Positions 1-59,752 of a stretch of 64,000 nt of DNA are shown in pieces; position 1 is the first letter of the stretch, and each line of letters starts with the position of its first letter. Origin of the DNA: Eledone cirrhosa (lineage: Eukaryota). The translations under genes and the position numbers were made by a program. The stretch lies in NCBI GenBank assembly GCA_964016885.1, contig OZ024743.1, positions 355,260,001-355,324,000 on the forward strand. Direction: 5' to 3'. The notes beneath the pieces were generated by a model that searched no databases, was not told the DNA's origin, and saw only the letters and a list, made by a program, of their open reading frames with translations.

Positions 1-1312
1 TATATATACATTCAACAGAGAGTAGAGAGTTTGACAACAGGTCGATGACTTTAGGGTAATGACATGTGGTGGTGGGGAGAGAGTGTAGACGTTATTGTGG
101 TGGTGGGGGACAGTGCGATGTATCTAGTTCATTTGACCGTTTTCTTCTCTTTGCAAAATTTGAATTTTAGCCATGTTATATTGAGATGTAAGTAAATGTA
201 AAATGTAAAATATAAATAAGGATTGCTCTGCTAAAATATACTAAAATATTTGTGTAACTTCCACAAACTTCTGTCGTGACATTCCCGAGTCCAGTAACCA
301 ACAAATTGTTGTATTTTGATGTTTCAGAATACAAAAGTTAATTAAAAACTTACCCCACGAAAAGACAGCGTGTGTTGTCCTATCTATAAGCTCCCTCATA
401 CATATACATATATATACATAAGGGACCTATTCAGACTATCGGAGAATCGTGCCAAACTCGGTTGCCAAATTACCTTCTTAAAACGCTGCCTAAAGAACAA
501 CATCATTCCAACCACCATCAGGAATATACATCTACCCGAATGTTTACGATCACCATCCTTCGAAAACACCATCCGCCACATTCAACGCACGTTTATCAAG
601 AAAATACTACGACACAACCACCACCAACTGCCACTCCATATACAAACGCTTTCCGAGCACATAGATCGTATAGCTCCAACCCTCACCCCTGACCACCAGG
701 TCCAGGAAATACGCAAAGCTATAGATCAGTGTTACCACACCAGAGTCAAATATGATAAACAGCGCCTTATACGGAAATACTAATGGACTGTAAACAAATA
801 CTACAATGACAACATCCGCTCCCACAGACGGACCGACTACAACCACACCAGGGGCAACAGCTATACAACACCCTCCGCTACACCCCCCAACATCGATCTA
901 CCTACCAACGATGCTTCACACCTCGTTACCGACTTAACCGGTACCCTCACCAACGACGAACTCGAACTTCTGCGCCTCGGACCCAAGTTCATCATTACAC
1001 AGCGTCTCGATGATAGACTGAAACTCGACATCGAAACCAACTTCTGTCGGACAGCATATCAACTGAAATGGCTAACCGCCATCCAAAACAACACCGAGAT
1101 CGATTACAACCCCACAACCCACCCCACACTCCCCACGTATCACCTCGACAACCCACTCCACCCCCCACCCACCAACCACGAACTTGACACTAAACTACTC
1201 AGGTTGAAACATTCTATCTCTAACATCCTTTCCCAACACACACACACACAATAAACGCAACCTCACCAATGCACAATTTAATACTCTCACCAACCTAAGA
1301 TCCAGGAACCTT

Positions 1313-2992
1313 GTGTACCTTCCCTCTGACAAGGGGAAAGAATTCTGTGTCATCTCGAGAGAGACCTACAACAACTTAGCTCTCCAACATCTTAATGACC
1401 ACAGCCTCTACTCGAAAGTCACAGGGACCTCCTCGACTCTAATCGAGGAAGGCATTAACACCATATGGACTAACATCTGTGTCCAACGAAAACTGCCAAA
1501 GAAGGTAAAAAACAACATAATGACTCGAAACAGCAAATTACCCACCTTCTACCACTTGGTTAAAACACATAAACAAGGACCCGATTTGAAAATCCGGCCC
1601 ATTGTCTCTAGCGTGGAGGGCCCACTCTACAAAATATCGTGGCTGCTCTCCACACTACTGAAACCCATTCTACACACACTACCAGCCCACGTCTGCAGCT
1701 CAAAGGAGGTCTTGGAGCGACTACACCATCTGGCGCCCAACACCAGAAAGGACAACGGTTATGCCTTCAGTCTTGATGTGGTCGCCCTTTATACCTCCGT
1801 ACCAGCATCCCCAGCCGTCGACCTGTTGACCGAACGAGTCCGAGCATCTAACTTACACTGCTTCGGACTCACACACACGGACATCCACCAACTCCTCTCC
1901 TTCGTTGTGGATAATGCACTCTTCAATTTCCTCGGCCACACGTACAAACAAATCTCTGGGCTACCTATGGGCTCTAGTCTGTCCGGCATACTTGCGATCT
2001 CGTACATGGACCACCTGGAACGCAAGGCACTCAATACCTGCCAACCCAACGCCGTCGCCTTCTACTCCAGATACGTTGATGACATCCTGATACTTACTTC
2101 TTCCCGGGAGATGGCGAATGAAATTCACCAAATCTTCAACGATACTGACCATCACGTCGATTTCACCATCGAACACCCAGGAGAAGACGGGTCACTCGCC
2201 CTCCTCGACTTCCGTATCAACATCTCGGAAGAAGGAGACATAAACACCACCTTCTACCGCAAAACAGCGTGCAAGGACTTATTTGTGCATTATAACTCAG
2301 CCCTCCCCAACAACGCTAAGAGAGGCTATGTCCTAAATGAACTGACACGGATCACTAACAGATGCAGCGACCCGATGGGTGGTCTTACCCATACCACGCA
2401 ATTCCGTAATCTACTCAGATCTAATGGTTATCCCAAGCGACTGATTAACGGAATTAGAGACCCCAGACCCAATAGACAGACACCCACTAGAAACTTAAAT
2501 AAAAGCAGGTGCTTCTTCAAAATCCCCCACCTGAGTGAATATACCACGAACGCCATCCGCAGGGCCATACGGACGGAGGGACTTGACATACATTTGGCCC
2601 ACACAGGACCTTAGCTGCGAAGATGCCTCTCCAACAAACCCGACGAGTCAGATGGGACGTGTTCCCTCAGCAACTGCCCGATACGGGGGGCAGATTGCCT
2701 ACGCACCTATGTCGTATATAAGATTCAATGCGGTAAATGTAACAAGTTTTACATAGGTAGCACCATCCGACCCCTACATGTTCGTATCAAGGAACATATC
2801 AACACCAACGCATCTTCCTTCCGTAAACACATCCTTAAATGCGGAAACCCACAGGGTAGACCCTTGGTCACAGTCCTAGCGACTGAACGCAGCATCGGAT
2901 CCTTAACGATAAAAGAAGCACTTGTTATTAAGAACCTCAGACCCCCACTTAACAACCGGGCTGAGAGAAATGAGCTGACATGGCTAACTTAA
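1313..2992 (+). pseudogene. PLE reverse transcriptase + GIY-YIG endonuclease, premature stop at 2612-2614
   Basis: ORF track plus manual translation through the TAG. Confidence 0.9.
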
Positions 2993-10554: not shown

Positions 10555-13330
10555 CAGTGGCGGATTTAAGGAATAGGGCCCAGTCGGCATTGGTCAGTAA
10601 GGAGGCCCCAGAGTGAAAATTAAAGTACCTTCTTTTCGAGCGAGTATTGAAAAAGTTTTTTTTTTAATTTCCCATTTAGCTACCAATAATCATTAAGAAG
10701 ACAATTAAATTACAAGTACACTTTATTTGAAACAAACAAACAGATGTGCTGTACTGTAAACAAATAATAAAGTAATAAAGTTGTATATATGTTAGTCTTT
10801 TACACAAATTGCTTTTACATGCGCAGACCTCTGCGAGCTTTAACAGTTGAAAAATGAGTTATAGCGTGGTCCAAGTTTACTGATTTAGTAATTTTGTTTT
10901 CAATTGCCAGCAGGGCAAGACTGGATAGCCTCTCCTGGCCCATCGTTGAACGAAGATAATTTTTAATTCTTCGTAGAACACTGAAAGAGCGTTCCGCACT
11001 TGCTATGCCAATTGGTAAAGTGAGAAATAGCCTTACCAGAATTTCAAACTCGGGAAAGACATCACACAAGTATAAATAACATTTCAGATATGGCATAACC
11101 CCACTTTGTTTTAAAGCTGCGTTTGGCTGTGAAAAGTAGAGGCCAATGAAAGAAAAGAGTGTGAATTCATTTGGAAAGTTATCTACCAATGTTGCTACAT
11201 GTGTTTTTAGTTCATCATCTGAGCATTTAGACAGTCGATTTGGACTCAAAGATCCAAAGATTGAAGATATTTTTTTATTCCTTCAGTTCGGGCTCTCATC
11301 TCCCCAATCATACTATCCAGTGATTGAAAATAAATTGCAGTGCGATATCTATCTGAAGCAGTAGCTAGTCTTTCAACACCACAAACTTCACCATCCATAA
11401 TCTTTCTTCTCCTTACTCGCGTTATTTTAAAATCAGCTTCAGATGCATCAAATCCCACGTCATTCCAGGCTTTCTTTGCCTGGTCCACAAATTGTTCAAA
11501 TTTGTGATCGCATCTGAGTTCTTCCAATTTATCTGTTGAACGTTCAAAGCACTCAGTCACAAGGAATAAATCATTTGCCATATCAAGAAGTTGACTCCAG
11601 CGTCTATTTGAACTAACAAAGAAAGCATAGATAGATTGAATGTTATCAAAGAAGCATTTAATTTCAACAAGAGGTGGAGGAGTATCACTTTGAGCTGCAT
11701 GTTCAAGAACTAGATTGAGTTGGTGGGGAGGACAGTGAACATATGGAACAAAAGTATTTCCGTCCAGTGCCATATTCTTTTTTAGTAAAGCTTGAACACC
11801 ACCTAATGCCCCACTCATCACAGATGCTCCATCATATGCCTGTCCTTTAAGATGTTTGCGCTGCAAGCCAAATTCTTCAAACAATGCCTTTTCAATGACA
11901 CTGGTAATACCAATTGCACTAGCATCAAGGACATGATAATATCCAACAAAGTGTTCTACAATTTCCACTGATTTTTCAAGTCTGTCAATTTTTATAAATC
12001 TCAATAGCACCGCCATTTGGTCCTTATGACTTATATCAGTTGTAGAATCAGCAATCACAGTGAAAAATTTGGCTTCCTTGCAAAGATCAACAATTTTGTC
12101 AAGTGTCATTTTTGAAAGAATCTGGACTTGTTCCTCAAAGATAGTTTTGCTCAGATATTTGAGTTGTCCCTTGTCCTCAAAATGTTGTTTAAGAATAGGA
12201 TCGATTGTGCTTATGTGCCTTAATATTGATAAGTACACACCTGGATTATCAGCATCCAAGAATTCTCTATGACCTCTTAGTGGCAATCCTAGACATGTAA
12301 GTTCCCGTAAAAGTCCGAACTGATGATTAAGAACATATTTCCATTTTTGAACTTCTGCATCCATTTGTTTTTTCACTGAAACTCCAATGGACATATTCTT
12401 GGCGAACTGTTTATAGGCATATACTGCTCTGTGATGAATTTTTGATTGAAAGTGTTTTTCAATGCTTTTGGAAATGTGCTTCCAATCATTCATACTCTTT
12501 GACCATGGCGAGTTTTTGGCCTCTTCATCACCAAATAACCAGCAATGATGGCAGTAACAATAATTACCTTTGTATGAATAAGCTAGCCAGTATCTGTGTA
12601 CTCGTTCTTCAAGGGGTTTTTTTAAATTATAGTAACTGCTCTTGAATTTTCTAGAATGGATAATGGGATAGTCTCCTGTAGGCATATCATTTTCCAAAGG
12701 TTGACAAGCACCCCTTTCAACTAAAATGTTCAAGTAATCTTTCACTTTATTCTTTCCTGTGTCAAATCGTGCTTTGTCATTTAAAAATGGCATTGAAGCC
12801 TGACTAATTTCAGAAAGTTCATTTTCAACTTCAGAAAGACTTATATTTTCTACAGCAGGTTCAGTCACTTGAGAAGGAAGCACAGGTTCAGCCACTTCAG
12901 GAATAGTTTCAGCTTCACCTGTAGATATTGTAGGAATATTTTCTTCTGCAACATCCTCAATATCTGCACTATGGGGCGCAGAAAAAGCCAATAATCTTTG
13001 ATTTTTTGCTTTGCCTGCTGATTCCAAATCCTTTTTTCTTTTGAGTGCACGCTTCTCAGCACCTGATGAAAACTTCTTCTTAACATTGTGAGTCAGTCTA
13101 CAAACAAAATATAAACTAGGCATAGGAAATAATAAAAGGGACTTACCAATTATTTGTTGCTTACACAATTTTAATGCTTTAATATTTTTAAACTGTGGCC
13201 CAATAAAACAACGGCGATATCCAAAAATACCTCCCCCATGCCTAGGGCTAAATAACTTCGCTGTTCGCTGCTGATATGAGGCTAAATAACTTCGCTGCTG
13301 GCTGCTGGCTGCTGAAATGAGGCTATTCCA
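10555..13330 (-). mobile_element. hAT DNA transposon (Tip100/ZMYM1-like), one terminal repeat visible
   Basis: Terminus CAGTGGCGGATTTAAGG at 10555; transposase ORFs 11246-13168 and 10815-11249. The matching right TIR was not found, so the right boundary is approximate. Confidence 0.85.
10815..13086 (-). pseudogene. hAT transposase (TTF-type Zn finger, DUF4371-like core, C-terminal dimerisation domain), frameshifted
   Basis: WLAYS..YCHHCWLF, LRGHRE, ADSTTDISHKDQ, GQAYDGASVMSG, YVHCPPHQLNL, ASAERSFSVLRRIKNYLRSTMGQERLSSLALLAIE; frameshift at ~11250. Confidence 0.92.
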
Positions 13331-13594
13331 ACAAATTTACATTCCCTTTTTTTTAGCCGTTAAAAGAAATATAGATTTATTTATTTATTTGAAACGTTTT
13401 TGTTAGTTTCATTGTTTTGTTTTTTTGGCGATATTTTTGTTAGTTTCTTTGCTTTTTTTTAGTTTCTTTTTTTGGGCGTTTTTTGCCAGGTTTTTTTTTA
13501 TAGATATATTTATTTATTTTTAACGTTTTTGTTAGTTTTTGTTTTGTCTTTATGTCACAAAGATTGCTCTCCGACGCTCTACCGATAATAGTAA

Positions 13595-14733: not shown

Positions 14734-14946
<213 letters not shown>

Positions 14947-15015
14947 AAAAAGGGATGAAATCGAAAATGCAACTGAAGTCTTATTTTTTAAAAAAATATA
15001 TATATTTATTTGGTT

Positions 15016-15053
15016 CCTTTACCGGTTTCGCAGTTCTTCTGCTTTTCAAAAGG
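15016..15053 (-). ncRNA. Minimal type I hammerhead, U3:A8 core variant
   Basis: Reverse complement of 20487-20524. Confidence 0.75.
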
Positions 15054-15571
15054 TGAGTTGAGATGGAGGGTCTGTGGTTTTTCTCACATCTGGTTGGTCT
15101 CTAAATGTTACTTGTTTTATATGGAAAAAGTGGCTCGAAAACCAGGTTTTTCGAGAAGTAATTTGATTGGTTTGTCAATAATTATAATAAATTTCGCGCC
15201 AGTTCGCGTTACAGTAGTTCTTCAAATAAGAGAGAGGGGGGGGGGGGGTTGTCACAGGTTGTTTTTTCATATATGACTGTTTGAATTTCTTTTTACTTGA
15301 AAAAATGAGGCTCACGAAGGCTTTTTTTTGGTTGGTTATAAATGAAATTTGGCTGTCACGTGAACAAGTTTTCATTACATTTTTGCGCCCTTATTTGGAA
15401 AACTATTCTGTAGTCTTTATAGTGAATGTTATGACAATGGAGAGATAGTGGTCAAGGGAAAAGGGATTGGGAGAAATGTTCTGGTTCAGTGAATATGGCC
15501 AGCTGTCAGAGTTCAGGTGTCAGAGTTCAGATTTTCTATTGAGACTGAAGATATGTGTTTATTTGTGTGCT

Positions 15572-15604
<33 letters not shown>

Positions 15605-15860
15605 ATGTGTGTATTGGAAGATGATTCTATTAGTAGAGATGGGGGAGGGAGTTGTGTGTGTGTGTATATGGGTGTTATGTGTGTGTGCGCGAGTATGTTA
15701 GATAGAGAGAATATATATTTTGTGTGTGTGTATATATATATGTGTGTAGGAAAGTGGTTCTATTAGTAGAAATGGGGAGGATGTTGTAGGGGTGGGGGTT
15801 GTTATGTGTGTGTATGGGTGTTATGTGTGTGGGAGTATGGTTAGCATGTTAAGATGAAGA

Positions 15861-15920
<60 letters not shown>

Positions 15921-16038
15921 CCAGTGCAAACGTATGTTTAAGGTTTATTTAGTTCGGGTTTTTATTTTCTAAAGTAGAAGGTGTTATGTGTGTGTGTGTG
16001 TGTGTGTATGTCATATTGTTGTGTTGACATAATGTATA

Positions 16039-19000
16039 TTAAACCTTATTTAATGTTGGTCTATATTTTTGAATAAACATATTTTCCTTATTTATTCGCA
16101 TTTGTTCTGTTGTATTGTTAGCGCAAAGGTAAAATGGGAAGACTTGGAATTTGGGTGTCTTATTACTTGCGCAAATGTCTAGATGTCCACTTAGTGGTAT
16201 CTGTCTCGTGGTTGGATCTCGTAATTGTTGGCGATGAACTGTTATTCTGTTTCTGAGTGTGAGTTTAGTTTGTCCTATATAATCTTCATTGCATCCTTTA
16301 CATTTAATGGCATAAATTAGATTTTTTGATGAGCAAGTGAAGTGATTTTTTACAGTAAAATTTTGTCCTGATTTAAATGTATACGTGTTGCCTTCAATGA
16401 GGTGAGTGCAGGTTCCACAATTAGAGCGACCACATTTTTTGATACTTGGTTGTGGGTTTGTGGTAGGTAATTTGGCATTGGTGAGTAATGTTTTCAGTGA
16501 TTTTGGTTGTCTTTTGCTTTTGATTATTTTGTGTGTTTCAAGGGCTTTTTTCATTCTTGGGTTTTGTTTTAGTAGTGGGATGTTATTGTGAATAGTGTTG
16601 TAAGCTTCCGCATTTCTTGGGTTGTGTGTTGAGATATATGATAGAATATTGGACGTACCTTGAATTTGTTTCTGTTTCCGTAATTCATCAATGCCTATTG
16701 CTTTAGCCCTTTCTATTCCATTATTTATTAGTAATAGTGGGTACTCTCTCTCAAGTAGAATTTCCTTTAATTCTTGAAGTCTTTTATTTCGCGTTTCATA
16801 ATTGGAGACAATTGTGCAAATTCTTCTTGCTAGGTTAAAAGGAATGTTCGTCTTCGTGTGCTTTGGATGGTTGGGGGTGAATAGCAGATATTGTTTGGAA
16901 TCTGTTGGTTTGTAGTGTATGTCAGTTTCGATATTTGTGTCTTTTTTTGTGATTAAGATGTCCAGAAATGGGAGTTGATCTTGGCTGTATTCCATTGTGA
17001 ATTGGATGTGGTTATTGATGCCGTTTATTAAGTTTTTGAAATCCTTCAGTTGGTCGAGTGTGTGGGACCAAAGAATGAGGCAATCATCCAAGTAGCGTTT
17101 CCAATTCTCTGATAAATATTTGTGGAAGTTCAATCCGTATTTTGATTTGGACTGTTCATATATCTGGACTTCTAAGTATGCCATGACTAAGTTGGCATAA
17201 GTTGGAGCGGCTTTTGTTCCCATCGCAGTCCCCGATATTTGCTTGTAAGTATTGCCATCGAAATCAAAAAAGTTGTTCTGTAGGATGAATTTTAATCCCT
17301 CGGTGATGAAGCTTTTTTCTATTCTGTCAGGTATCTCATTGGGATATTTCTCTAGCCAGAATCCTATTGCTTCTAGTCCGTATTGGTGTGGGATCGTTGT
17401 GTAGAGATTCACTACATCGAAAGACACAATAATAGTGTCGTTGTTGACATGTTTGGGGAGGTGGTTTAAGAGGTCCAGATCGTCTCTTACAAGGCTTGGT
17501 ATGTGTTTCAGTATTGGTTTCAGTAGTATGTCTATAAAGTTGCTCTATCTGTGTGTTTCACATTGTGGGCCCGCTACAATTGGTCTTAATTTAAGGTCTG
17601 TGGGGTATTGTGTGTTCACGCAGGCTGAGGTGGATTGTTTACAGGCATCGTTGATTATTTTACATTTGTGGATCTTTGGAAGTCCGTAAAGGTTGCTGGT
17701 TTTGTATTCAAAATTTGTTAAATAATCGCGTTCCTTTTTAGTTAGGTCTTCCTGGTATCGATAAATCAGTGTGTTTAATTTGGTCATTATTTTTGATTGC
17801 TGGTAGTTTTTTACTCTTTCATAGTAATTAGCATTTTGTAAGAGAGAGAACATAGAATTTTTATATTTTTCAGCCTCCATAATGACAACAGTACTTCCCT
17901 TGTCCGCTTCCTTAATTACAATGTCCGGATTGTTGTTTAGTTCATGGATAATCTCCCATTCCCTTCGACTTGTGTTGGGTTTGGGTTTAGGTTGCGGTAG
18001 TTCATGGTATGGGAAGGTGGCTATGTGGTCACAAAATTTGTCCAGAACTCTGTTTCTACCTTTTGTTGGGTTGTAGCTGCTTTTATTCCGTACAATTGAT
18101 TCGTCGTTATTCTCCTTGTCAAAGAATTCCTCTGTGAGACGTAATTTTCTACAGAAGTGTGAGATATCGTCATTTATCTCGTTGGGGTTAGGATATTGTG
18201 GTGTTGGTGTGAATTTCAGACCTTTGGAGAGAATTTTTACTTGTTGGGCTGAGAGGTTTGTATTTGAAATGTTAATTATTTTCGGTTTTTCAAAATCGGT
18301 TTGTGCCACCGGGTGTCGTGAGTCCTGTAGCCTTGGTCTAAAAAATGATTTTTCTGGAATGTTTTTTCATTGGTATTATTATCTCTAATGGTATTTCCCC
18401 TGTTGTTGTGTGGTCTTGTATAGAAGTTTCGGACGTATTGAGGTTCGGTTTGTTGATAGTCCGGGTTGTAGATTTGATTCCTTTGTGTGGGTTGGGATCT
18501 ATGGTTTTGGAACAGGCTCTGTGTGGGCAGGGGTCTACGGTTTTGGAATAGGTTTTGTGTGGGTTGTGATCTGCGGATCAGGTCCTGCCTTGTGTTCGGG
18601 GATCTTTGGTTTTTGTTAGTAGGGTTATAGTTTTGTCTATGGTTTCTGGGATTATCGTTATAGTTTTGCTGGGGGTATGTTGGACGTTTAGTTACTTTTT
18701 TTGTTATTTGTTGTGCATGTGGTGTGTGAGTTTTAGTTTGTTTTAAAAATGGGTTACCTGTATGTTGTTCATTTTTGAAGTCCATTTCGTAGTTGTTGAA
18801 CCAGGTGGCGTTTTTTTCCCATCGCTGGAGGGATGTGAGTTCTTCATCCTCACAGTTTTCTTTCCAAAGTTTTAGGGGGTTTTTGTAGAGTAGGCCTTCA
18901 GAGTGCTTTGAGATTTCTGTGTCCATCTGTTGGTCGAGTGACTTGAATTTTTCTTCGTTGGTGTTGGCTCTTAATCGCAACAGTTCTATTTCTGTTTTAA

Positions 19001-19119
19001 ATTTTTCCAATGCCATCTTTTCCCTAAGTCTTTGTTGGTTTTCTGGTTCATTCGGGATGGGTTTTATTTGGAGTTTTTTGGGGAGGATGATTGGGGTAGA
19101 GTTTAGCCACTTTTCATAT
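16039..19119 (-). pseudogene. PLE polyprotein: N-terminal region, RT, Cys linker, GIY-YIG endonuclease
   Basis: KGLKF, ADKG, LPKIHK, RPIV, SFDVVNLYT, GTAMGT, YLDD, CGRSNCGTC, LIYAIKCKGCNEDYIGQT..R..H. One in-frame TAG at 17545-17547 and one frameshift at ~18310-18350; the reading frame is cut at the inversion junction. Confidence 0.93.
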
Positions 19120-19594
19120 ATGTAAAGGATGCAATGAAGATTATATAGGACAAACTAAACTCACACTCAGAAACAGAATGACAGTTCATCGCCAACAATT
19201 ACGAGATCCAACCACGAGACAGATACCACTAAGTGCACATCTAGACATTTGCGCAAGTAATAAGACACCCAAATTCCAAGTCTTCCCATTTTACCTTTGC
19301 GCTAACAATACAACAGAACAAATGCGAATAAATAAGGAAAATATGTTTATTCAAAAATATAGACCAACATTAAATAAGGTTTAATATACATTATGTCAAC
19401 ACCACAATATGACATACACACACACACACATAACACCTTCTACTTTAGAAAATAAAAACCCGAACTAAATAAACCTTAAACATACGTTTGCACTGGCAAT
19501 ACAACTGCAAACACGAAAAAGTCAGGAAATATGTTCATTCAAAAATATTCCTACTAAAGGAATCATTTTCCTACACACACACATACACACACAC

Positions 19595-19688
<94 letters not shown>

Positions 19689-20486
19689 TCTTCATCTTAA
19701 CATGCTAACCATACTCCCACACACATAACACCCATACACACACATAACAACCCCCACACCTACAACACCCTCCCCATTTCTACTAATAGAACCACTTTCC
19801 TACACACATATATATATACACACACACAAAATATATATTCTCTCTATCTAACATACTCGCACACACACACATAACACCCATATACACACACACACACAAC
19901 TCCCTCCCCCATCTCTACTAATAGAATCATCTTCCAATACACACACACACACATATATACACACACACAAGCACACAAATAAACACATATCTTCAGTCTC
20001 AATAGAAAATCTGAACTCTGACACCTGAACTCTGACAGCTTGCCATATTCACTGAACCAGAACATTTCTCCCAATCCCTTTTCCCTTGACCACTATCTCT
20101 CCATTGTCATAACATTCACTATAAAGACTACAGAATAGTTTTCCAAATAAGGGCGCAAAAATGTAATGAAAACTTGTTCACGTGACAGCCAAATTTCATT
20201 TATAACCAACCAAAAAAAAGCCTTCGTGAGCCTCATTTTTTCAAGTAAAAAGAAATTCAAACAGTCATATATGAAAAAACAACCTGTGACAACCCCCCCC
20301 CCCCTCTCTCTTATTTGAAGAACTACTGTAACGCGAACTGGCGCGAAATTTATTATAATTATTGACAAACCAATCAATTTACTTCTCGAAAAACCTGGTT
20401 TTCTAGCCACTTTTTCCATATAAAACAAGTAACATTTAGAGACCAACCAGATGTGAGAAAAACCACAGACCCTCCATCTCAACTCA

Positions 20487-20524
20487 CCTTTTGAAAAGCA
20501 GAAGAACTGCGAAACCGGTAAAGG
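20487..20524 (+). ncRNA. Minimal type I hammerhead, U3:A8 core variant
   Basis: CCTT-TTGAAAA-GCAG-AAGAA-CTGC-GAAAC-CG-GTA-AAGG, followed by AATAAA. Confidence 0.78.
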
Positions 20525-20655
20525 AACCAAATAAATATATATATTTTTTTTAAAAATAAGACTTCAGTTGCATTTTCGATTTCATCCCTTTTTCTTTATA
20601 CTTCCACTCGTGTAGGACACCTCGGTTATTTTTCATTTTGTAAAAAAAACCTCAC

Positions 20656-21372: not shown

Positions 21373-21454
21373 ACTCCCTGATGACGCAATGAATTCTCGA
21401 CAGTTGGATTACGTAACTGTCTTTATCCCATTGCAGAAACTAATTAGTTGGAGT
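21373..21454 (+). ncRNA. Type I hammerhead ribozyme with extended, branched stem II
   Basis: ACTCC-CTGATGA-C-GCAATG..GACAGTT(9)AACTGTC..CATTGC-A-GAAAC-TAATTA-GTT-GGAGT; co-varies with the copy at 34958-35039. Confidence 0.88.
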
Positions 21455-21504
21455 GAAAATTTAAGTAAGTAAAAAATTTTTTTTAAATTTTTTTAAAATT
21501 TTTT

Positions 21505-34957: not shown

Positions 34958-35039
34958 ACTCCCTGATGACGTAAGGACTTCTCTATAGTTATGTTACGTA
35001 ACTATATTTATTCCCTTACAGAAACTAATTAGTTGGAGT
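34958..35039 (+). ncRNA. Type I hammerhead ribozyme with extended, branched stem II (second copy)
   Basis: ACTCC-CTGATGA-C-GTAAGG..TATAGTT(9)AACTATA..CCTTAC-A-GAAAC-TAATTA-GTT-GGAGT. Confidence 0.88.
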
Positions 35040-35207
35040 GAACATTTTAGTAAGTTAATTTTTAATTTTTAAAATTTTCTTATTTTACGTCTTTCATATA
35101 ATTGTTCTGCATCCCCCTGCATAGAACCACAAAGGTACTAAGACATAACATACATATTTGCTAGCATGGGTATACATCTGTATACATATGTTGGTAGATA
35201 TACTAAT

Positions 35208-39364: not shown

Positions 39365-39930
39365 ACACCTAAAATTTAGCTTAAGAGAAACTTGACAATA
39401 ATGATAGGCTCCCAATATTTTAACTGGTTTATAGCCTTGTCACTCTTGGCTTTTGTCACTCTAAGTAGAGCTTTAAAGAATTAGCCTTTAAAGAATTTCC
39501 CTTTTCTTTAAATCTATCAACCAACCATCACCGACCCCCAAGCATCTTATAGACACCTGAAATATAGGCATTGCTAGCTTAAGAGAAACTTTAAAATAAA
39601 GATTCGCACCCCAATTTGAACTTGTTTATAGAATTCTTTCTGCCTTTGTCACTCCAAATATAAATTATAGCCTTAAAGAATTAGCTTTTAATGATTTCCC
39701 TTTTCTTTCAACCAATGATCTCCACCCATCCCACTCCCCACCCTCTACTACCACCTGAAAAGATATAAATACTACAACATTTATTTTGGACAGCCAGATT
39801 CCTGATGATTTCTAAAAAATGAAACAGTTCTAGTCCTGTAGAATCTCATCTATATTAAATCTTTTATACTCTTCTATGTATTGAATACCTTACTTACTGT
39901 GGTTACCTCCGATTCAACCCGCTATAACTT
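39365..39930 (+). mobile_element. Non-coding hammerhead-bearing repeat with internal ~205-bp tandem duplication
   Basis: Homologs at 45661-46230 (-), 49505-49645 (-), 58074-58260 and fragments near 56780, 56960 and 60740. Confidence 0.75.
39797..39845 (+). ncRNA. Type I hammerhead ribozyme
   Basis: GATTC-CTGATGA-TTTCTAAAAAAT-GAAAC-AG-(8)-CT-GTA-GAATC; stem II is damaged in this copy. Confidence 0.7.
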
Positions 39931-39931
39931 A

Positions 39932-41278
<1,347 letters not shown>

Positions 41279-45572: not shown

Positions 45573-45661
<89 letters not shown>

Positions 45662-45744
45662 GTTATTCCGGGTTGAATCGGAGGTAACCACAGTAAGTAA
45701 GGTACTCAATACATAGCAGAGTATAACAGTTTTAATATAGATGA

Positions 45745-45793
45745 GATTCTACAGGACTAGAACTGTTTCATTCATTAGAAATCATCAGGAATC
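45745..45793 (-). ncRNA. Type I hammerhead ribozyme
   Basis: GATTC-CTGATGA-T-TTC-TAAT-GAA-T-GAAAC-AG-(8)-CT-GTA-GAATC; all three stems pair, GUA cleavage triplet. Confidence 0.85.
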
Positions 45794-46313
45794 TGGGTAT
45801 CAAAAAATAAATATGGTATTTATAGGTTTCTACAAGTGGTAGGAGAGGGTGGGGAGTGGGATGGGTGCAGGTCATTGGTTGATAGAAAAGGGAATTCATT
45901 AAAAGCTAATTCTACAAAGCTATAGTTAATTTTTATTTTTATTTATATTTATTTATGTTTTTAGAGTAACAAAGGCAGACAGAATTCTATAAACAGGTTC
46001 CGGATGGCATACCATTCCTTGTCAATAAGTTTCTCTTAAGCTAACAGATGTCTATAAAATCAGTGGGGGGTCAGTCATGCTCGATAGAATTAAAGAAAAG
46101 GGAGATTCTTTAAAAGCTAAGGTCATTAAGGTTCTACTAAGTGACAAAGGTCTAGAGAATTCTGCAGACAGATTCAAAATACTGAGTGCATATCTTACTA
46201 TTATCTTCGAACTTCTCTTAAACTAATCAAAAAAATTGACTTTACCTACTATAGTAGGTAAAGTCAATTTTTTAAAATTTATTTTGAAACTTTTTCATTA
46301 TTTGCTAAACCTT

Positions 46314-47041: not shown

Positions 47042-47075
47042 CTTAACCTTTCGGACGGTAGTCACTCATCAGAAG
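47042..47075 (-). ncRNA. Minimal hammerhead, probably degenerate
   Basis: CTT-CTGATGA-GT-GAC-TACC-GTC-C-GAAAG-GTT-AAG. Confidence 0.6.
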
Positions 47076-47739: not shown

Positions 47740-48028
47740 CGGTCTGCAATCACCGGGCCGCGGACCATGGACTATCTGGTACAAGGCCGCACAGAAAGAA
47801 TAACACTTTTTATTTCATTTTATTGACTACAAAGGTCTACCGCATGTTGAGTTACATTTACAATATAAATATAATAATTAAACGAATAATAAAATTATAT
47901 AATATGCACTTTATTGTTTATTGTGTTTTGTTATGCGTTTAACCAACACCGAAGCCCCTACCTTTGGTCAGTGGAGAAATTGTCTTGTATGACCCCGTTC
48001 CGTGGCACAAAAAGGTTGGGGATCGCTG
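47740..48028 (-). mobile_element. hAT (Charlie-like) MITE, inverted copy
   Basis: Reverse complement of 48143-48435. Confidence 0.8.
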
Positions 48029-48142
48029 GCATAGATCGCTATATATATATATAGTCTACCTCTCTTGTCTGGGTGCTGCCACTTGTCTTCCTTTACTTAT
48101 CCTTCCTACGTACCATCACACTCCTCTCTCACTCATCTATAC

Positions 48143-48435
48143 CACCGATCCCCAACCTTTTTGTGCCACGGAACGGGGTCATACAAGACAATTTCTCGAC
48201 TGATCAAAGGTAGGGGCTTCGGTGTTGGTTAAACGCATAACAAAACACAATAAACAATAAAGTGCATATTATATAATTTTATTATTCGTTTAATTATTAT
48301 ATTTATATTGTAAATGTAACTCAACATGCGGTAGACCTTTGTAGTCAATAAAATGAAATAAAAAGTGTTTATTCTTTCTGTGCGGCCTTGTACCAGATAG
48401 TCCATGGTCCGCGGCCCGTTGATTGCAGACCGCTG
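48143..48435 (+). mobile_element. hAT (Charlie-like) MITE
   Basis: Termini CACCGATCCCCAACC / GATTGCAGACCGCTG; 8-bp TSD ATCTATAC / ATCTATTC. Confidence 0.82.
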
Positions 48436-48705: not shown

Positions 48706-49129
48706 TATTGTTATGCTTTGGGAGGGTCATGTTGCCAATAAGAAACACACGTACCAGTTTCTTTCACTTCAATTTATTATAAATTAAATTTATAAATTTA
48801 GGAATTTATAAATTTCCGGTTGGTTGGTTGGTTCCACAACCAGACGATTGTTCATATATTGTCAAAGTTCTTTCGTCACACATTCTGTGTGATGGTGTAG
48901 GACAGAACAAAGGAGAGGCTCAAAAACAAAGAAAATAATCCCCAGTCACTGAAGAGGTCACAGAATGTGTGACGAAAGAACTTTGACAATATATGAACAA
49001 TTGTCTGGTTGTGGAACCAACCAACCGGAAATTTATAAATTCCTAAATTTATAAATTTAATTTATAATAAATTGAAGTGAAAGCAACTGGTGTGTGTGTT
49101 TCTTATTGGCCACATGACCCTCCCAAACC

Positions 49130-51444: not shown

Positions 51445-51502
51445 ACCAAAGGTTTCTGGATCCCAGACAATATTAATATGCGTCTGGATCGGTCATCAGA
51501 CA
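51445..51502 (-). ncRNA. Hammerhead-like motif, truncated just 5' of the core
   Basis: CTGATGA-CC-GATCCAGAC..GTCTGGGATC-CA-GAAAC; the stem I 5' strand is replaced by (AT)n. Confidence 0.55.
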
Positions 51503-52148
51503 TATATATATATATATATATATATAAATTAATAAAATAATGAATAAACAAAGAAACAGTTCCTTATATTAAAAAATTCATCGTTTTACGATCGTTTCTA
51601 GGATATATATGTTAGTGTTGGTATGCATATCCTATAGATCTATGTATATATATATATTTATATATATATATCCAGGGAGTGTATATATACAATGGGTGAT
51701 TCAGTATTTCAGTCGATTCTTGGATTACTGAGGAAGGTAGCAATATCAGCCCACTATAGTATAGCAGAGATTGTATATATTGAGAACAGTTGAGATTTTG
51801 GTTTTGCTTTATTACAATGATGAGCATTTCAGTTGTTCGAACAACAGAACTGCCGGCTCGGAAAATGAAAGAGCAAGTTTCTAAGCATTTCACAGACTCG
51901 TAAACCCTTAATACTGGCAGACTAGTACTTCGTATTATATGTACTAATTTTTTATAGCTAAGTGAAATAGAGTCGAGGAAGCAACATGTTTTACAGAAGT
52001 ACGCAATACGTTGGCAGGAATTGTTCTCACAACGTTACTCACTATGCTACGTGTATTTACCAGTATTTATAGTAAAGACAAATTTATTATATATATCTTG
52101 GTTTGGCTGGGAACCAGAGTTTCATCTTCATTATATCGTTCACCCGAG

Positions 52149-55440: not shown

Positions 55441-55631
55441 TAATAATAATAATAATAATAACAATAATAACTACATACACACACGTATACCTCACAATAT
55501 AATCCACACACAAAAACAAATAAAATGTCCATTTATAAATACACTATCGCAGGAAAATCATGAAGCTATAAATGCATGTGTGTGTATGCGTTTATGAACG
55601 TATGTACATATATATATGTGATAAAAACTGG

Positions 55632-55824
55632 CAGACCCTCCATCTCAACTCTACTTTTGAAAAGCAGAAGAACTGCGAAACCGGTAAAGGAACCAAATAA
55701 ATATATATATTTTTTTTAAAATAAGACTCCAGTTGCATTTTCGATTTCATCTTTTTTCTCTATACTTTCACTCGTGTAGGACACCTCGGTTATTTTTCAT
55801 TTTGTAAAAAAACCTCACTTTCTA
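55632..55824 (+). mobile_element. Solo PLE 3' terminus with U3:A8 hammerhead (55653-55690)
   Basis: Homologous to 20466-20660. Confidence 0.85.
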
Positions 55825-56015
55825 AAACCTGTTAGTTCTTTCGTTACTTTGGTATTGTGTGTTAGATTTTGCCTACCGCAATGTTCAATTTGTCAAGCTA
55901 TTTAAACGTATGGTATTACTCTGAGGACCTACCTTGTCGAGTGCTTTGCTAACTCATTCATATCGTAGGTCGAATTTGCTTGCACACCGCCAAAGATTCG
56001 ATTTTACTAAGCCTC

Positions 56016-56066
<51 letters not shown>

Positions 56067-56087
56067 ACATATGTATGTGTATATGTA

Positions 56088-56173
<86 letters not shown>

Positions 56174-56304
56174 GATAAATCTACCAAGAGTTTACGGTAG
56201 TGTCCAATCCGTATGAAGAACTCAATGTATTCCGGATATCATGGAAAGAAGAGATGTAATGAAAATCCACTTTCGGTGAAAGATAAACGGTATACAGAGT
56301 CAAG

Positions 56305-56690
56305 ATAAAATATTAAACAAATAATGAATAAACAATTCCTTATATTAAACAAAAAAAGTTCATTATTTAACGATCGTTTCTAGGGTATATATGTGTTATA
56401 ATTGGTATGCATATTCAACAGATCTATGTACAAAATTATACAAAATTATACAAATTATCAAGATTAAATATACATACCTAACACATATATACGCCGTCTT
56501 CAGAAGACGGCGTATATATGTGTTAGGTATGTATATTTAATCTTGATAATTTGTATAATTTTGTATAATTTTGTACATAGATCTGTTGAATATGCATACC
56601 AATTATAACACATATATACCCTAGAAACGATCGTTAAATAATGAACTTTTTTTGTTTAATATAAGGAATTGTTTATTCATTATTTGTTTA

Positions 56691-56699
<9 letters not shown>
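56305..56699. repeat. ~395-bp palindrome with a 1-nt axis inside a CTGAAGA box
   Basis: GCCGTCTTC-A-GAAGACGGC (axis 56502); each arm contains GAAAC-GATC-GTT. Confidence 0.92.
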
Positions 56700-56744
<45 letters not shown>

Positions 56745-56851
56745 TACATACATATATATATATATATACATACATATACATCCTAGTCCTGTAGAAGCCT
56801 TTCTATATTAAATATATATATATATATACATATATACATACATACACACAA

Positions 56852-56908
<57 letters not shown>

Positions 56909-56922
56909 CACACACTTATATG

Positions 56923-56953
<31 letters not shown>

Positions 56954-57020
56954 TATAGAAAGGCTTCTACAAGACTAGAGCTGTTTCATTCGGGAAGACA
57001 TATACATATATATATATGTA

Positions 57021-57048
<28 letters not shown>

Positions 57049-57053
<5 letters not shown>

Positions 57054-57968
57054 AATGAGACGTATAGAGATTGTTTTAGCAAGAAGCTAACGGCATTCTA
57101 TAACATATATGCGACTATAACGTCAAGATGGGAAAAGTAGTTAACGAAAGATTTAGGAAAAATAACTCAAACTCATCTCAAAAGAGAATCAGGATACAAA
57201 TTCATCCACAGAATTTAGTAAAATCCATGGAAAAATCTATAGACCTTTAACTCATGATAAAACAAAGTTTGAAACACTTATCCTTCAATTTGGAATAACA
57301 TCAAATGCTCTGTATAGTCTTAAAAGACTATTTCATGAAAACTTTCAGTGGAGATGGTCACGGTTGGAATATCATTCATCAGCAGAGCTCAACAGAAAAC
57401 CAGGGCTCTCACAGTAATATAGTCCGAAAAAGGGAATTCTAAAACTGGCTAGTTCGCCTTCATGTGTATTTATGAAAAAGCACATGAGGAAAAAACGGGG
57501 CTAGTGACGTCAGGATGGAAGTGAATGTTTATTTACAAGAAATAGCAGTCAAATACATTCTGAAAAAAACTCTACAAGGAGTTCAGCAAAATAGCAATAA
57601 TTATCACAGTTTTTATGAAAAAAACCGGGATTAGTCACAGATAGTTTAAGCACTCTAGGAAAAGAATCCGAGTATAAATATAAATGAGACGTATAGAGAT
57701 TGTTTTAGCAAGAAGCTAACGGCATTCTATAACATATATGCGACTATAACGTCAAGATGGGAAAAGTAGTTAACGAAAGATTTAGGAAAAATAACTCAAA
57801 CTCATCTCAAAAGAGAATCAGGATACAAATTCATCCACAGAATTTAGTAAAATCCATGGAAAAATCTATAGACCTTTAACTCATGATAAAACAAAGTTTG
57901 AAACACTTATCCTTCAATTTGGAATAACATCAAATGCTCTGTATAGTCTTAAAAGACTATTTCATGAA

Positions 57969-57972
<4 letters not shown>
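57049..57972 (-). mobile_element. Non-coding partial-tandem element (629-bp unit) with hammerhead; retrozyme-like or non-autonomous PLE
   Basis: Direct repeat ~57049-57343 / ~57678-57972; no ORF in the track; (AT)n on both sides. Confidence 0.8.
57307..57388 (-). ncRNA. Type I hammerhead ribozyme with stable stem III
   Basis: GCTCTG-CTGATGA-ATGA-(33 nt)-TCAT-GAAA-TAGTCTT-TT-AAGACTA-TA-CAGAGC; AUA cleavage triplet. Confidence 0.88.
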
Positions 57973-58058
<86 letters not shown>

Positions 58059-58574
58059 TTTTATACATTTTACATAGAAATGACTTCTACAGAACTAGAA
58101 CTGCTTCATTCGTATGAAATCATCAGGAATGATCTGGTGATTTCATACGAATGAAATACCACTAGTCCTGTATAAGTAATTTCTATATTAAATATTAATC
58201 CACATATTCTACCAATGTTGGAGTACATTTTTAACAATGGTTACCCCAGACACATCTCTGGAATTTCCATAGTCAGCACCCAACCGGGTCCTTTACAGCC
58301 ACTATATACACACACACACAGATATATATATATATAAACATACATATATGTATATGTGTATGTATGTATATATATATATATATGTGTATGTATGTATATT
58401 TACATGTATATGCAGATAAATATACATGCATGTATATATGTATGTATGTATATATATATATATATATGTATATGTATATGCATATAAATATACATGTATG
58501 TATATGTGTATGTATGTATATTTACATGTATATGCAGATAAATATACATGCATGTATATATGTATGTATGTATG

Positions 58575-58613
<39 letters not shown>

Positions 58614-59212
58614 GTATATGCATATAAATATACATGTATGTATATGTGTATGTATATGTATATATATATATATGTGTATGTATGTATATGTATATGCATA
58701 TAAATATACATGTATGTATATGTCTATGTATATGTATATGTATGTATATATATATATATATAAATATGTATGTATGTATGTATATGTATATGCATATAAA
58801 TATACGGTATGTATATGTGTATGTGTATCCATGTCGAAGGGAACGTAGAATGAAGATAATGGTTATGATATGATACATACCTATTCCTTTTTCTATTTAT
58901 CTATCTATCTATCTGTAGGCTGAGGAAAAGGAGGAGGAGAGGAAAGGAGTACAAACTCTTCGTACTCCTGGAGATGAGGGTTGCACATTTTTTTTCGGGG
59001 GTATGTCTTACCCATATGAACTGTCTCCCCCTATTGAAGAAAATCGATTAACTTTTTAAGTCGCATTTGTGATAACATTTTACGTTTTTATTGTATGTAA
59101 ACTTCCCCCTTTGTATTTGTCCCCTTCTTTTGTGCCCCTGTGGCTAATAAAGAAATATATCTATCTATCTATCTATCCATCCATCCATCTATCTATCTAT
59201 CTATCTATCTCC

Positions 59213-59285
<73 letters not shown>

Positions 59286-59286
59286 A

Positions 59287-59327
<41 letters not shown>

Positions 59328-59328
59328 A

Positions 59329-59366
<38 letters not shown>

Positions 59367-59752
59367 TCTATCTGTATATATATATATATATATGTATATA
59401 TTTAGATATAACCAACAAACGAACGAACGAACTTATTATTAACTAAATATCTTATTTATCTACCTATGCAAATTGTCTTTCTGCCTATTTGTATGACTGT
59501 TAATATATCTAACTATCTATATACCAGCCCACATTTCAAACTAGCTAGCCACCTAGTTTGTAGTCAGACATGTGGACGCGCCACCTACTAGAAATAGCAG
59601 CGAATCAATACATGGAAAACAAAAACGGAACATACTAGAGGGTTGGATCTTAAATATATTATAAAAGACGGTATGGACAAGGCTAGATTGACTTTGATCA
59701 TCTCTCTGCTCCTCCTGGGTTCACCCATGGCTAAACTACAAAAGCATCATAA

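Follow-up and report, generated by a model that had tools for sequence, protein, structure and literature searches.

How did a non-coding unit of 629 nt come to lie about one and a half times around a single intact hammerhead ribozyme, and was it copied from a circular RNA? The question is raised by a locus of Eledone cirrhosa (contig OZ024743.1). We analysed a 64-kb stretch around it, called the window here, and all positions are those of the window. The element runs on the minus strand from 57972 to 57049, with TA arrays on both sides. We conclude that it is very probably a non-autonomous Penelope-type hammerhead element, acting like an animal non-LTR retrozyme. Its parts are as follows.

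57972-58056, no strand: target microsatellite, (TA)n, bordering the insertion's 5' end (TRF, 42.5 copies, 100%); the A at 57972 fits array and element alike
57678-57972, minus strand: 5'-truncated partial unit of 295 bp (upstream pseudo-LTR copy), identical to 57049-57343
57936-57967, minus strand: 3' half of the hammerhead, comprising stem II 3' strand, GAAA, stem III, AUA with the cut 57942|57941, and stem I 3' strand; the CUGAUGA strand is absent, and the offset from the complete motif is 629
57784-57914, with a second copy at 57155-57285, minus strand: long imperfect hairpin of ~130 nt directly downstream of the cut site, present in circular and linear folds
57678-57682, minus strand: TATAT inside the element where the units join; the same five letters form the 3' end (57053-57049), which overlaps the (TA)n target
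57344-57677, minus strand: single-copy part of the unit, 334 bp, with promoter-like motifs and the ribozyme 5' half; covered in runs X1, X2 and X13
57443-57512, minus strand: promoter-like run from a motif scan, with a CRE TGACGTCA at 57512-57505, a TATA-like box at 57474-57467 and an Inr-like motif at 57448-57443
57307-57388, minus strand: complete type I hammerhead from a descriptor scan, its core kept in related copies
57313-57941, minus strand: predicted 629-nt cut-to-cut monomer, 60% paired as a circle
57049-57343, minus strand: 3' copy of the 295-bp repeat, identical to 57678-57972 and terminating at the family's main 3' end
57000-57053, no strand: (TA)n target microsatellite at the 3' end (TRF), with no target-site duplication readable inside it

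Self-comparison of the window showed that 57049-57343 and 57678-57972 match over 295 bp with 0 mismatches at an offset of 629. Repeat (295 bp), single-copy part (334 bp) and repeat (295 bp) make up 924 bp, or 1.47 units of 629. The initial annotation had described an ORF-less 629-nt unit present about 1.5 times, which was borne out: the longest stop-free frames of the circularised unit are 51 codons on the ribozyme strand and 83 codons on the other, and the plus-strand 83-codon frame gave no Pfam match. It was also right that the repeats are identical, that a unique part lies between them and that (AT)n stands at both ends; its lengths of ~293 bp for the repeat and ~335 bp for the unique part had to be corrected to 295 and 334 bp. 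The site that it gave near 57505 was found at 57512-57505. The start at 57972, which it placed inside stem II, proved to lie on the 3' side of loop II, and the 3' strand of stem II is retained. The GC content of the cut-to-cut monomer is 33.7%, i.e., under 50%. The window contains 0 N, and both cut sites are crossed within 57049-57972 with no base gained or lost. The CRE, TATA-like and Inr-like motifs sit 60-125 nt upstream of the ribozyme; they are consensus matches only, scored without a chance control, and we presume that they act as promoter elements. TATAT at 57678-57682 is likely a priming microhomology or a captured remnant of the target, and the hairpin at 57784-57914 may be a candidate RT-binding or protective structure.

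The complete hammerhead has a stem I of 6 bp (57388-57383 with 57312-57307), the core strands CUGAUGA (57382-57376) and GAAA (57334-57331), the triplet AUA, a stem II of 4 bp that closes a 33-nt loop, and a stem III of 6 bp. The 57388-57307 motif was the single match to a strict hammerhead descriptor in the 64-kb window. None of 300 shuffled windows (block-wise dinucleotide shuffle, both strands) contained a match, even with stems relaxed to I>=4, II>=3 and III>=3. The complete hammerhead with its 6-bp stem I stands as first annotated. Cuts are predicted at 57313|57312 and 57942|57941, 629 nt apart as had been claimed. Rfam at gathering threshold gave 0 matches in the 64-kb window. At E<=10, the 133 matches in 55500-59500 were mostly miRNA models on TA repeats or palindromes with 0 hammerhead models among them, and the 7 weak matches at 57250-57450 were all non-hammerhead. 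Rfam probably misses the motif because of its long loop II. Helix III and loop II are both long, which is mildly unusual: most animal motifs have a helix III of 1-2 bp and short loops, against 6 bp and 33 nt here, and a 6-bp helix III recalls the fungal and protist PLE (Penelope-like element) motifs described in the same source and is unusual for animals (PMC4209133). Judged from that comparison, a helix III of this length should permit monomeric cutting.

Folding predictions gave a mixed picture of the ribozyme. The 96-nt ribozyme alone showed a modest excess of stability (z -1.4, 18 of 200 shuffles equally good). In its minimum-energy fold stem II is shifted in register onto the core, the active fold lies 1.9 kcal/mol higher, and the base of stem II is A-U, not the usual G-C. 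Partners of 5-7 bp for a loop II pseudoknot are present near stem I (counted without a control). Folded as a circle, the 629-nt monomer reached -135.3 kcal/mol (z -3.4; none of 60 shuffles did as well), much of this signal tracing to the single 130-nt hairpin, and the 264-nt 3' part gave z -3.07 (1 of 200 shuffles as good). Stems I and III are formed in this predicted structured circle (p 0.67 and 0.85-1.0, respectively), and canonical stem II has p 0.02. In a transcript ending at 57360, stem I pairing is predicted between the half ribozyme at 57936-57967 and the 5' half downstream of it (p ~0.8); upon read-through from upstream, such pairing could in principle release a monomer. Among 40 listed variants (108 further ones exist), 21 fall on predicted paired sites and 10 of these keep the pair, several of the partners lying at the edge of the mapped stretch.

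To compare the unit with public sequencing runs we used as reference a permuted unit (57200-57828, 629 nt), in which the cut site and both ends are internal. Fifteen runs were listed in the search; 11 contain part of the unit and 6 contain at least half of its words (studies P1 and P2), and none of the 15 is an RNA run containing the unit. Four of them (X1, X2, X8, and X13) were mapped and the small-share runs X7, X9, X10, and X11 were left out; one P1 run may be the source of the assembly. X1 yielded 919 contig records spread over all identity classes (208/242/299/170), X2 yielded 29 and X8 yielded 4, and 3228 raw RAD reads of X13 match the unit. All 30 bins of the unit are covered in X1, X2, and X13. 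The depths given below are sums of contigs or RAD reads that include related families near the ribozyme, and are to be taken as rough values and not as copy numbers. The mapping listed no joints, not even the obligatory wrap-around of the repeat in the permuted reference, and is uninformative on circles. The contig records and reads show that the unit belongs to a many-copy, partly diverged family. Exact-pattern scans for the unit found no match in metagenome contigs (2 patterns), viral contigs or prokaryote genomes, and a literature search, with Repbase and Dfam outside its scope, found no published description of this family.

The initial annotation had expected the ~57678 junction to occur elsewhere, and it does so in a second organism and study. 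Record 15 of X2 (organism B, study P2; 487 nt, 99% identical) extends over 57339-57825, differs in 3 letters, has 2 gaps and spans the 57678 junction; the periodic order is therefore inherited and not private to the assembly, and the head-to-tail periodic unit is a property of the family. The permuted or variable RT start points that had also been anticipated were not what the runs revealed. From 57599-57661 to 57683-57745 the depth rises 3.05-fold in X1, 2.02-fold in X2 and 3.32-fold in X13, and a 2-3x step at ~57680 in all three well-covered runs therefore indicates one main 3' end, the RT start. The 3' end of the family looks fixed, not permuted. Record 20 of X8 starts at 57679, and a loose end of X2 at 57707 terminates in a TA run. 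Loose ends suggest that the 5' ends are variable in the family. The ratio of post-ribozyme to internal depth is 4.0 in X1, 2.5 in X2 and 2.0 in X13; because the repeated part is just 2-4x deeper than the rest, we take the family to consist of short truncated tandems and not of long arrays. Depth does not fall across the cleavage site in X1, X2 or X13 (928 vs. 1192 in X13). As a check for a 30-40 bp tail beyond the 3' end, the rough depth over 57620-57682 was raised in X1, and not in X2 or X13; the element here has no clear tail of that length, which is known as an optional feature of PLEs.

Related copies bear on the ribozyme itself. Two X8 contigs have U>G at N7 and, in stem II, C-G in place of U-A with both sides changed, and this C-G adjoins a U-U at the stem's base, like the axolotl motif (PMC7229834). 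One loose end of X13 (264 reads) retains the stem III 3' strand and AUA, and the loose ends of related families have a different 5' strand, a changed N7 and other flanks; such family loose ends lie at 57322, 57370 and 57393. Since related copies keep the core with a compensatory change in stem II, the fold appears to be maintained and the ribozyme to be under selection. Loop II and the ribozyme centre (57323-57370) are common to related families under three organism labels with differing flanks, only relatives that share the loop being detectable. Depth near the ribozyme is inflated because the related families share this centre.

At three positions the two repeats of the window agree with each other against most of the family. 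The window carries a minority letter at 57228, 57263 and 57690, and both repeats have it; the other letter was found in 415 of 487, 438 of 538 and 191 of 198 X13 reads, respectively, with a similar distribution in X1 and X2, and some of the X13 reads with the other letter show no further difference. Had the mutations followed the insertion, the repeats would no longer match each other. For the 295 bases this leaves two copies made from a single template, homogenisation, or an assembly duplication, and double copying of one template stretch is probably what gave both repeats.

The likeliest single mechanism is that the template of the insertion was a self-cut, re-ligated 629-nt RNA circle copied by PLE enzymes, a proposal whose chances we judge to be about even. 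A source copy with at least two ribozymes would be transcribed from the CRE/TATA-like motifs or by read-through. The hammerhead is predicted to cut at AUA and free 629-nt monomers, and a host RtcB-type ligase would close them, as in known retrozymes. A PLE GIY-YIG endonuclease would nick (TA)n, and the nicked strand would prime internally at a fixed UAUAU located 264 nt downstream of the cut. To give the anatomy found here, the RT would have copied 264 nt to the cut site, made one full round, added 31 nt more and stopped in loop II. On a cut linear monomer the template would run out after 264 nt, and the element crosses the cut twice without a scar; the template was thus continuous at that point, either a circle or an uncut tandem RNA. 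We favour the circle because the length of helix III suffices for cutting as a monomer, the minority alleles are shared, arrays are not dominant in the family, and the animal retrozymes tested so far accumulate as circles (PMC7229834). The A-U at the base of stem II, the AUA triplet, the competing register and the low probability of canonical stem II weaken the case for a circle and for monomer cutting. The copy at 57049-57972 itself is probably an inert dead end, since just one of its ribozymes is complete and the promoter-like motifs are placed downstream of its first cut, where they could drive no more than the final 264 nt.

The second type of continuous template would be a linear RNA transcribed from a homogenised dimer or array and left uncut, used by the same PLE enzymes with internal priming at the fixed site and truncated at its 5' end after 924 nt; the ribozyme would then be late, weak or protein-assisted. 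We consider this possible, though somewhat unlikely; it agrees with the data almost as well as the circle does. It is the only reading with a direct biochemical precedent: in PAc, an anole element and the only PLE studied in vitro, reverse transcription starts internally, hammerhead cleavage is dispensable and uncut RNA is the main template (PMC11167929). Li et al. reported cleavage in just 1 of 9 predicted frog retrozyme dimers, the other 8 failing to cleave (bioRxiv 10.64898/2026.07.22.740005). Partial tandems and 5' truncation are standard PLE anatomy (PMC8557442) and fit an uncut transcript, and the fixed 3' end and the clean crossings of the cut site fit it equally well. However, such a transcript requires a source of two near-identical units with the same three minority alleles, and the 2-4x depth of the repeated part argues that long arrays do not form the bulk of the family. 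The 6-bp helix III should, by comparison with the motifs of PMC4209133, also permit cutting of the monomer.

A linear cut monomer could have served as template if the RT primed 264 nt from its 5' end and then jumped end-to-end, twice, to the same or another monomer, which we regard as unlikely. Jumping would copy one unit twice, in agreement with the shared minority alleles, and requires no ligase. However, end-to-end template jumps usually leave indels, as known from work on R2, whereas both crossings of the cut site are base-perfect here and depth does not drop at the cut. Less probable again is the insertion of one unit whose 295-bp duplication arose locally, by slippage or unequal exchange between the TA tracts or by gene conversion, or from assembly or polishing. 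The 100% identity of the repeats, their shared minority alleles and the microsatellites on both flanks would suit such an origin, and no mapped read or contig spans the whole locus. On the other hand, the order post-ribozyme part, TATAT, internal part, ribozyme occurs in the independent 487-nt contig, which makes the duplication the normal form of the family, and the window has no N. That the motif at 57307-57388 is a box C/D snoRNA-like sequence and not a ribozyme is very improbable: the two best Rfam matches at 57250-57450 are C/D snoRNA models, but they score 16.6 bits vs. gathering thresholds of 49 and 41 (E 2-2.6), the would-be D box reads CAGA rather than CUGA, every hammerhead core position and the three stems are present, and relatives alter the would-be C box at N7 yet keep the hammerhead.

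We compared the element with known hammerhead retroelements. With the metazoan non-LTR retrozymes described by Cervera and de la Pena (2020, PMC7229834) it has in common a non-coding head-to-tail unit of GC <50% with a type I hammerhead, a predicted self-paired circle with a foldable ribozyme, and co-occurrence with PLEs. It differs in its unit of 629 nt (~170-400 nt in the species tested there) and in its 1.47 units with one complete ribozyme vs. dimers to 62-mers. The consensus lengths of PLE-derived animal retrozymes, 51-972 bp, include 629 (Li, Clavereau and Pollet, 2026, bioRxiv 10.64898/2026.07.22.740005); according to the same preprint most families have <=7 units, dispersed monomers are common, and a PLE origin is proposed. 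The 'active' class of that work has two consecutive complete hammerheads, whereas this locus has one complete and one half; because of its one complete ribozyme we do not file it as an 'active' retrozyme, only as working like one. In the 64-kb window no homology of the element to a PLE pseudo-LTR was found.

Shared with PLEs and non-autonomous derivatives such as Chlamydomonas MRC1 are the pseudo-LTR partial tandem, 5' truncation, a fixed internal RT start downstream of the hammerhead, and insertion into (TA)n or AT-rich DNA (Craig et al., 2021, PMC8557442; Frangieh et al., 2024, PMC11167929). Unlike autonomous PLEs, the element lacks an RT/endonuclease ORF, and its hammerhead has three full stems, in contrast to the minimal dimeric one described for animal PLEs. 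Target and start site match over 5 nt here, vs. a non-homologous start in PAc (PMC11167929). Plant LTR retrozymes have the same repeat-unique-repeat layout and circles of 600-1000 nt (PMC4918200, PMC5680766). They are described as carrying type III ribozymes in both LTRs, PBS and PPT, and 4-bp TSDs, whereas the ribozyme here is of type I, straddles the repeat boundary and is complete once, which sets the element apart from LTR retrozymes of the plant type.

The surroundings are animal-type repeat DNA with no tRNA gene in the 64-kb window. A scan of 82 of the 86 frames beyond 40 kb (4 simple-repeat frames were omitted), which short exons would escape, found no host exon near the element and 2 weak sub-cutoff Pfam matches far from it. 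Co-resident PLEs are represented by RVT_1 and GIY-YIG ORFs at 1208-2992 and 16039-17544, both stop-interrupted; the latter has a CX4CxxC linker, the kind tied to (TA)n targeting in PMC8557442. It belongs to a near-complete PLE at 15921-19496 (minus strand) that has RT and GIY-YIG, in-frame stops and a position in (TA)n, together with a 386-bp inverted 5' copy (97% identity) in the PLE layout of PMC8557442. This PLE is flanked by a 917-bp inverted repeat of 90% (14944-15858 and 19691-20596), and a second near-complete PLE at 346-2992 (plus strand) is split by stops into four frames. Searched against the 64-kb window, the element itself gave no match to a coding PLE (blastn; best tblastn E 0.38). 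The many-copy family, the RT and GIY-YIG ORFs of the window and the shared minority alleles agree with the first description of the locus as a non-autonomous, retrozyme-like element probably moved by a PLE.

Hammerhead-like motifs are repeatedly found close to TA runs in the window. A relaxed scan gave 7 of them, including 57307-57388, whose cut sites lie 89-259 nt upstream of a TA run, and 4 further hand-checked cores lie 119-194 nt upstream of one; random positions used as a control have a median distance of 691 nt, 32% being within 350. Cores at 47072, 38579, 51499 and 61750 (minus strand) and at 48949 and 31700 (plus strand) are each 120-200 nt upstream of a TA run. Of these further cores some may be minimal PLE motifs and some chance. 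No homology was detected between the element and the other hammerhead-like motifs or PLEs of the window. A second hammerhead-like family of ~600 bp occurs at 39376-39972 and 45618-46226 (76% identity; motifs at 39802, plus strand, and 45788, minus strand), and truncated and inverted pieces of it flank the element on both sides (58085-58230, 56950-56992, and 56780-56811), one of them beginning near loop II. Members of a third type I hammerhead family at 21378-21455 and 34963-35040 (plus strand) are 78% alike over ~300 bp; their helix II domain is long, stem II carries one additional base and stem III measures 2 bp. A perfect palindrome at 56305-56699 (197-bp arms, 1-nt spacer) resembles 51502-51646 over part of its length (~80%) and may be either a PLE-type end in inverted form or an artefact of the assembly. 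The window also contains a 298-bp inverted repeat (47740-48432, 98% identity) and a 696-codon frame with DUF4371 at 11246-13336 (minus strand), which we take to be probably a hAT-type DNA transposase.

The circle model of PLEs was proposed in 2014 (PMC4209133), appears again in PMC7229834, and was called into question in 2024 by in vitro experiments (PMC11167929). That PLE enzymes copy a circle over more than one unit is already proposed in print, hammerhead retroelements of this kind are already known from many animals, and the discovery is a modest one. The full picture, an animal element in high copy number with a three-stem hammerhead that cuts in monomeric form to give an unusually large 629-nt circle, copied by a Penelope enzyme that is target-primed at a fixed UAUAU pairing with nicked (TA)n, is offered tentatively. 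Being short, many-copy, fixed at its 3' end and equipped with a ribozyme that is presumably active as a monomer, the 629-nt family could help to decide the circle question. If the picture is true, dispersed copies of 1.5 units would record directly in the genome that reverse transcription had gone around a circle for more than one unit length, and the family would allow a test of the still unproven circle model of how Penelope pseudo-LTRs form.
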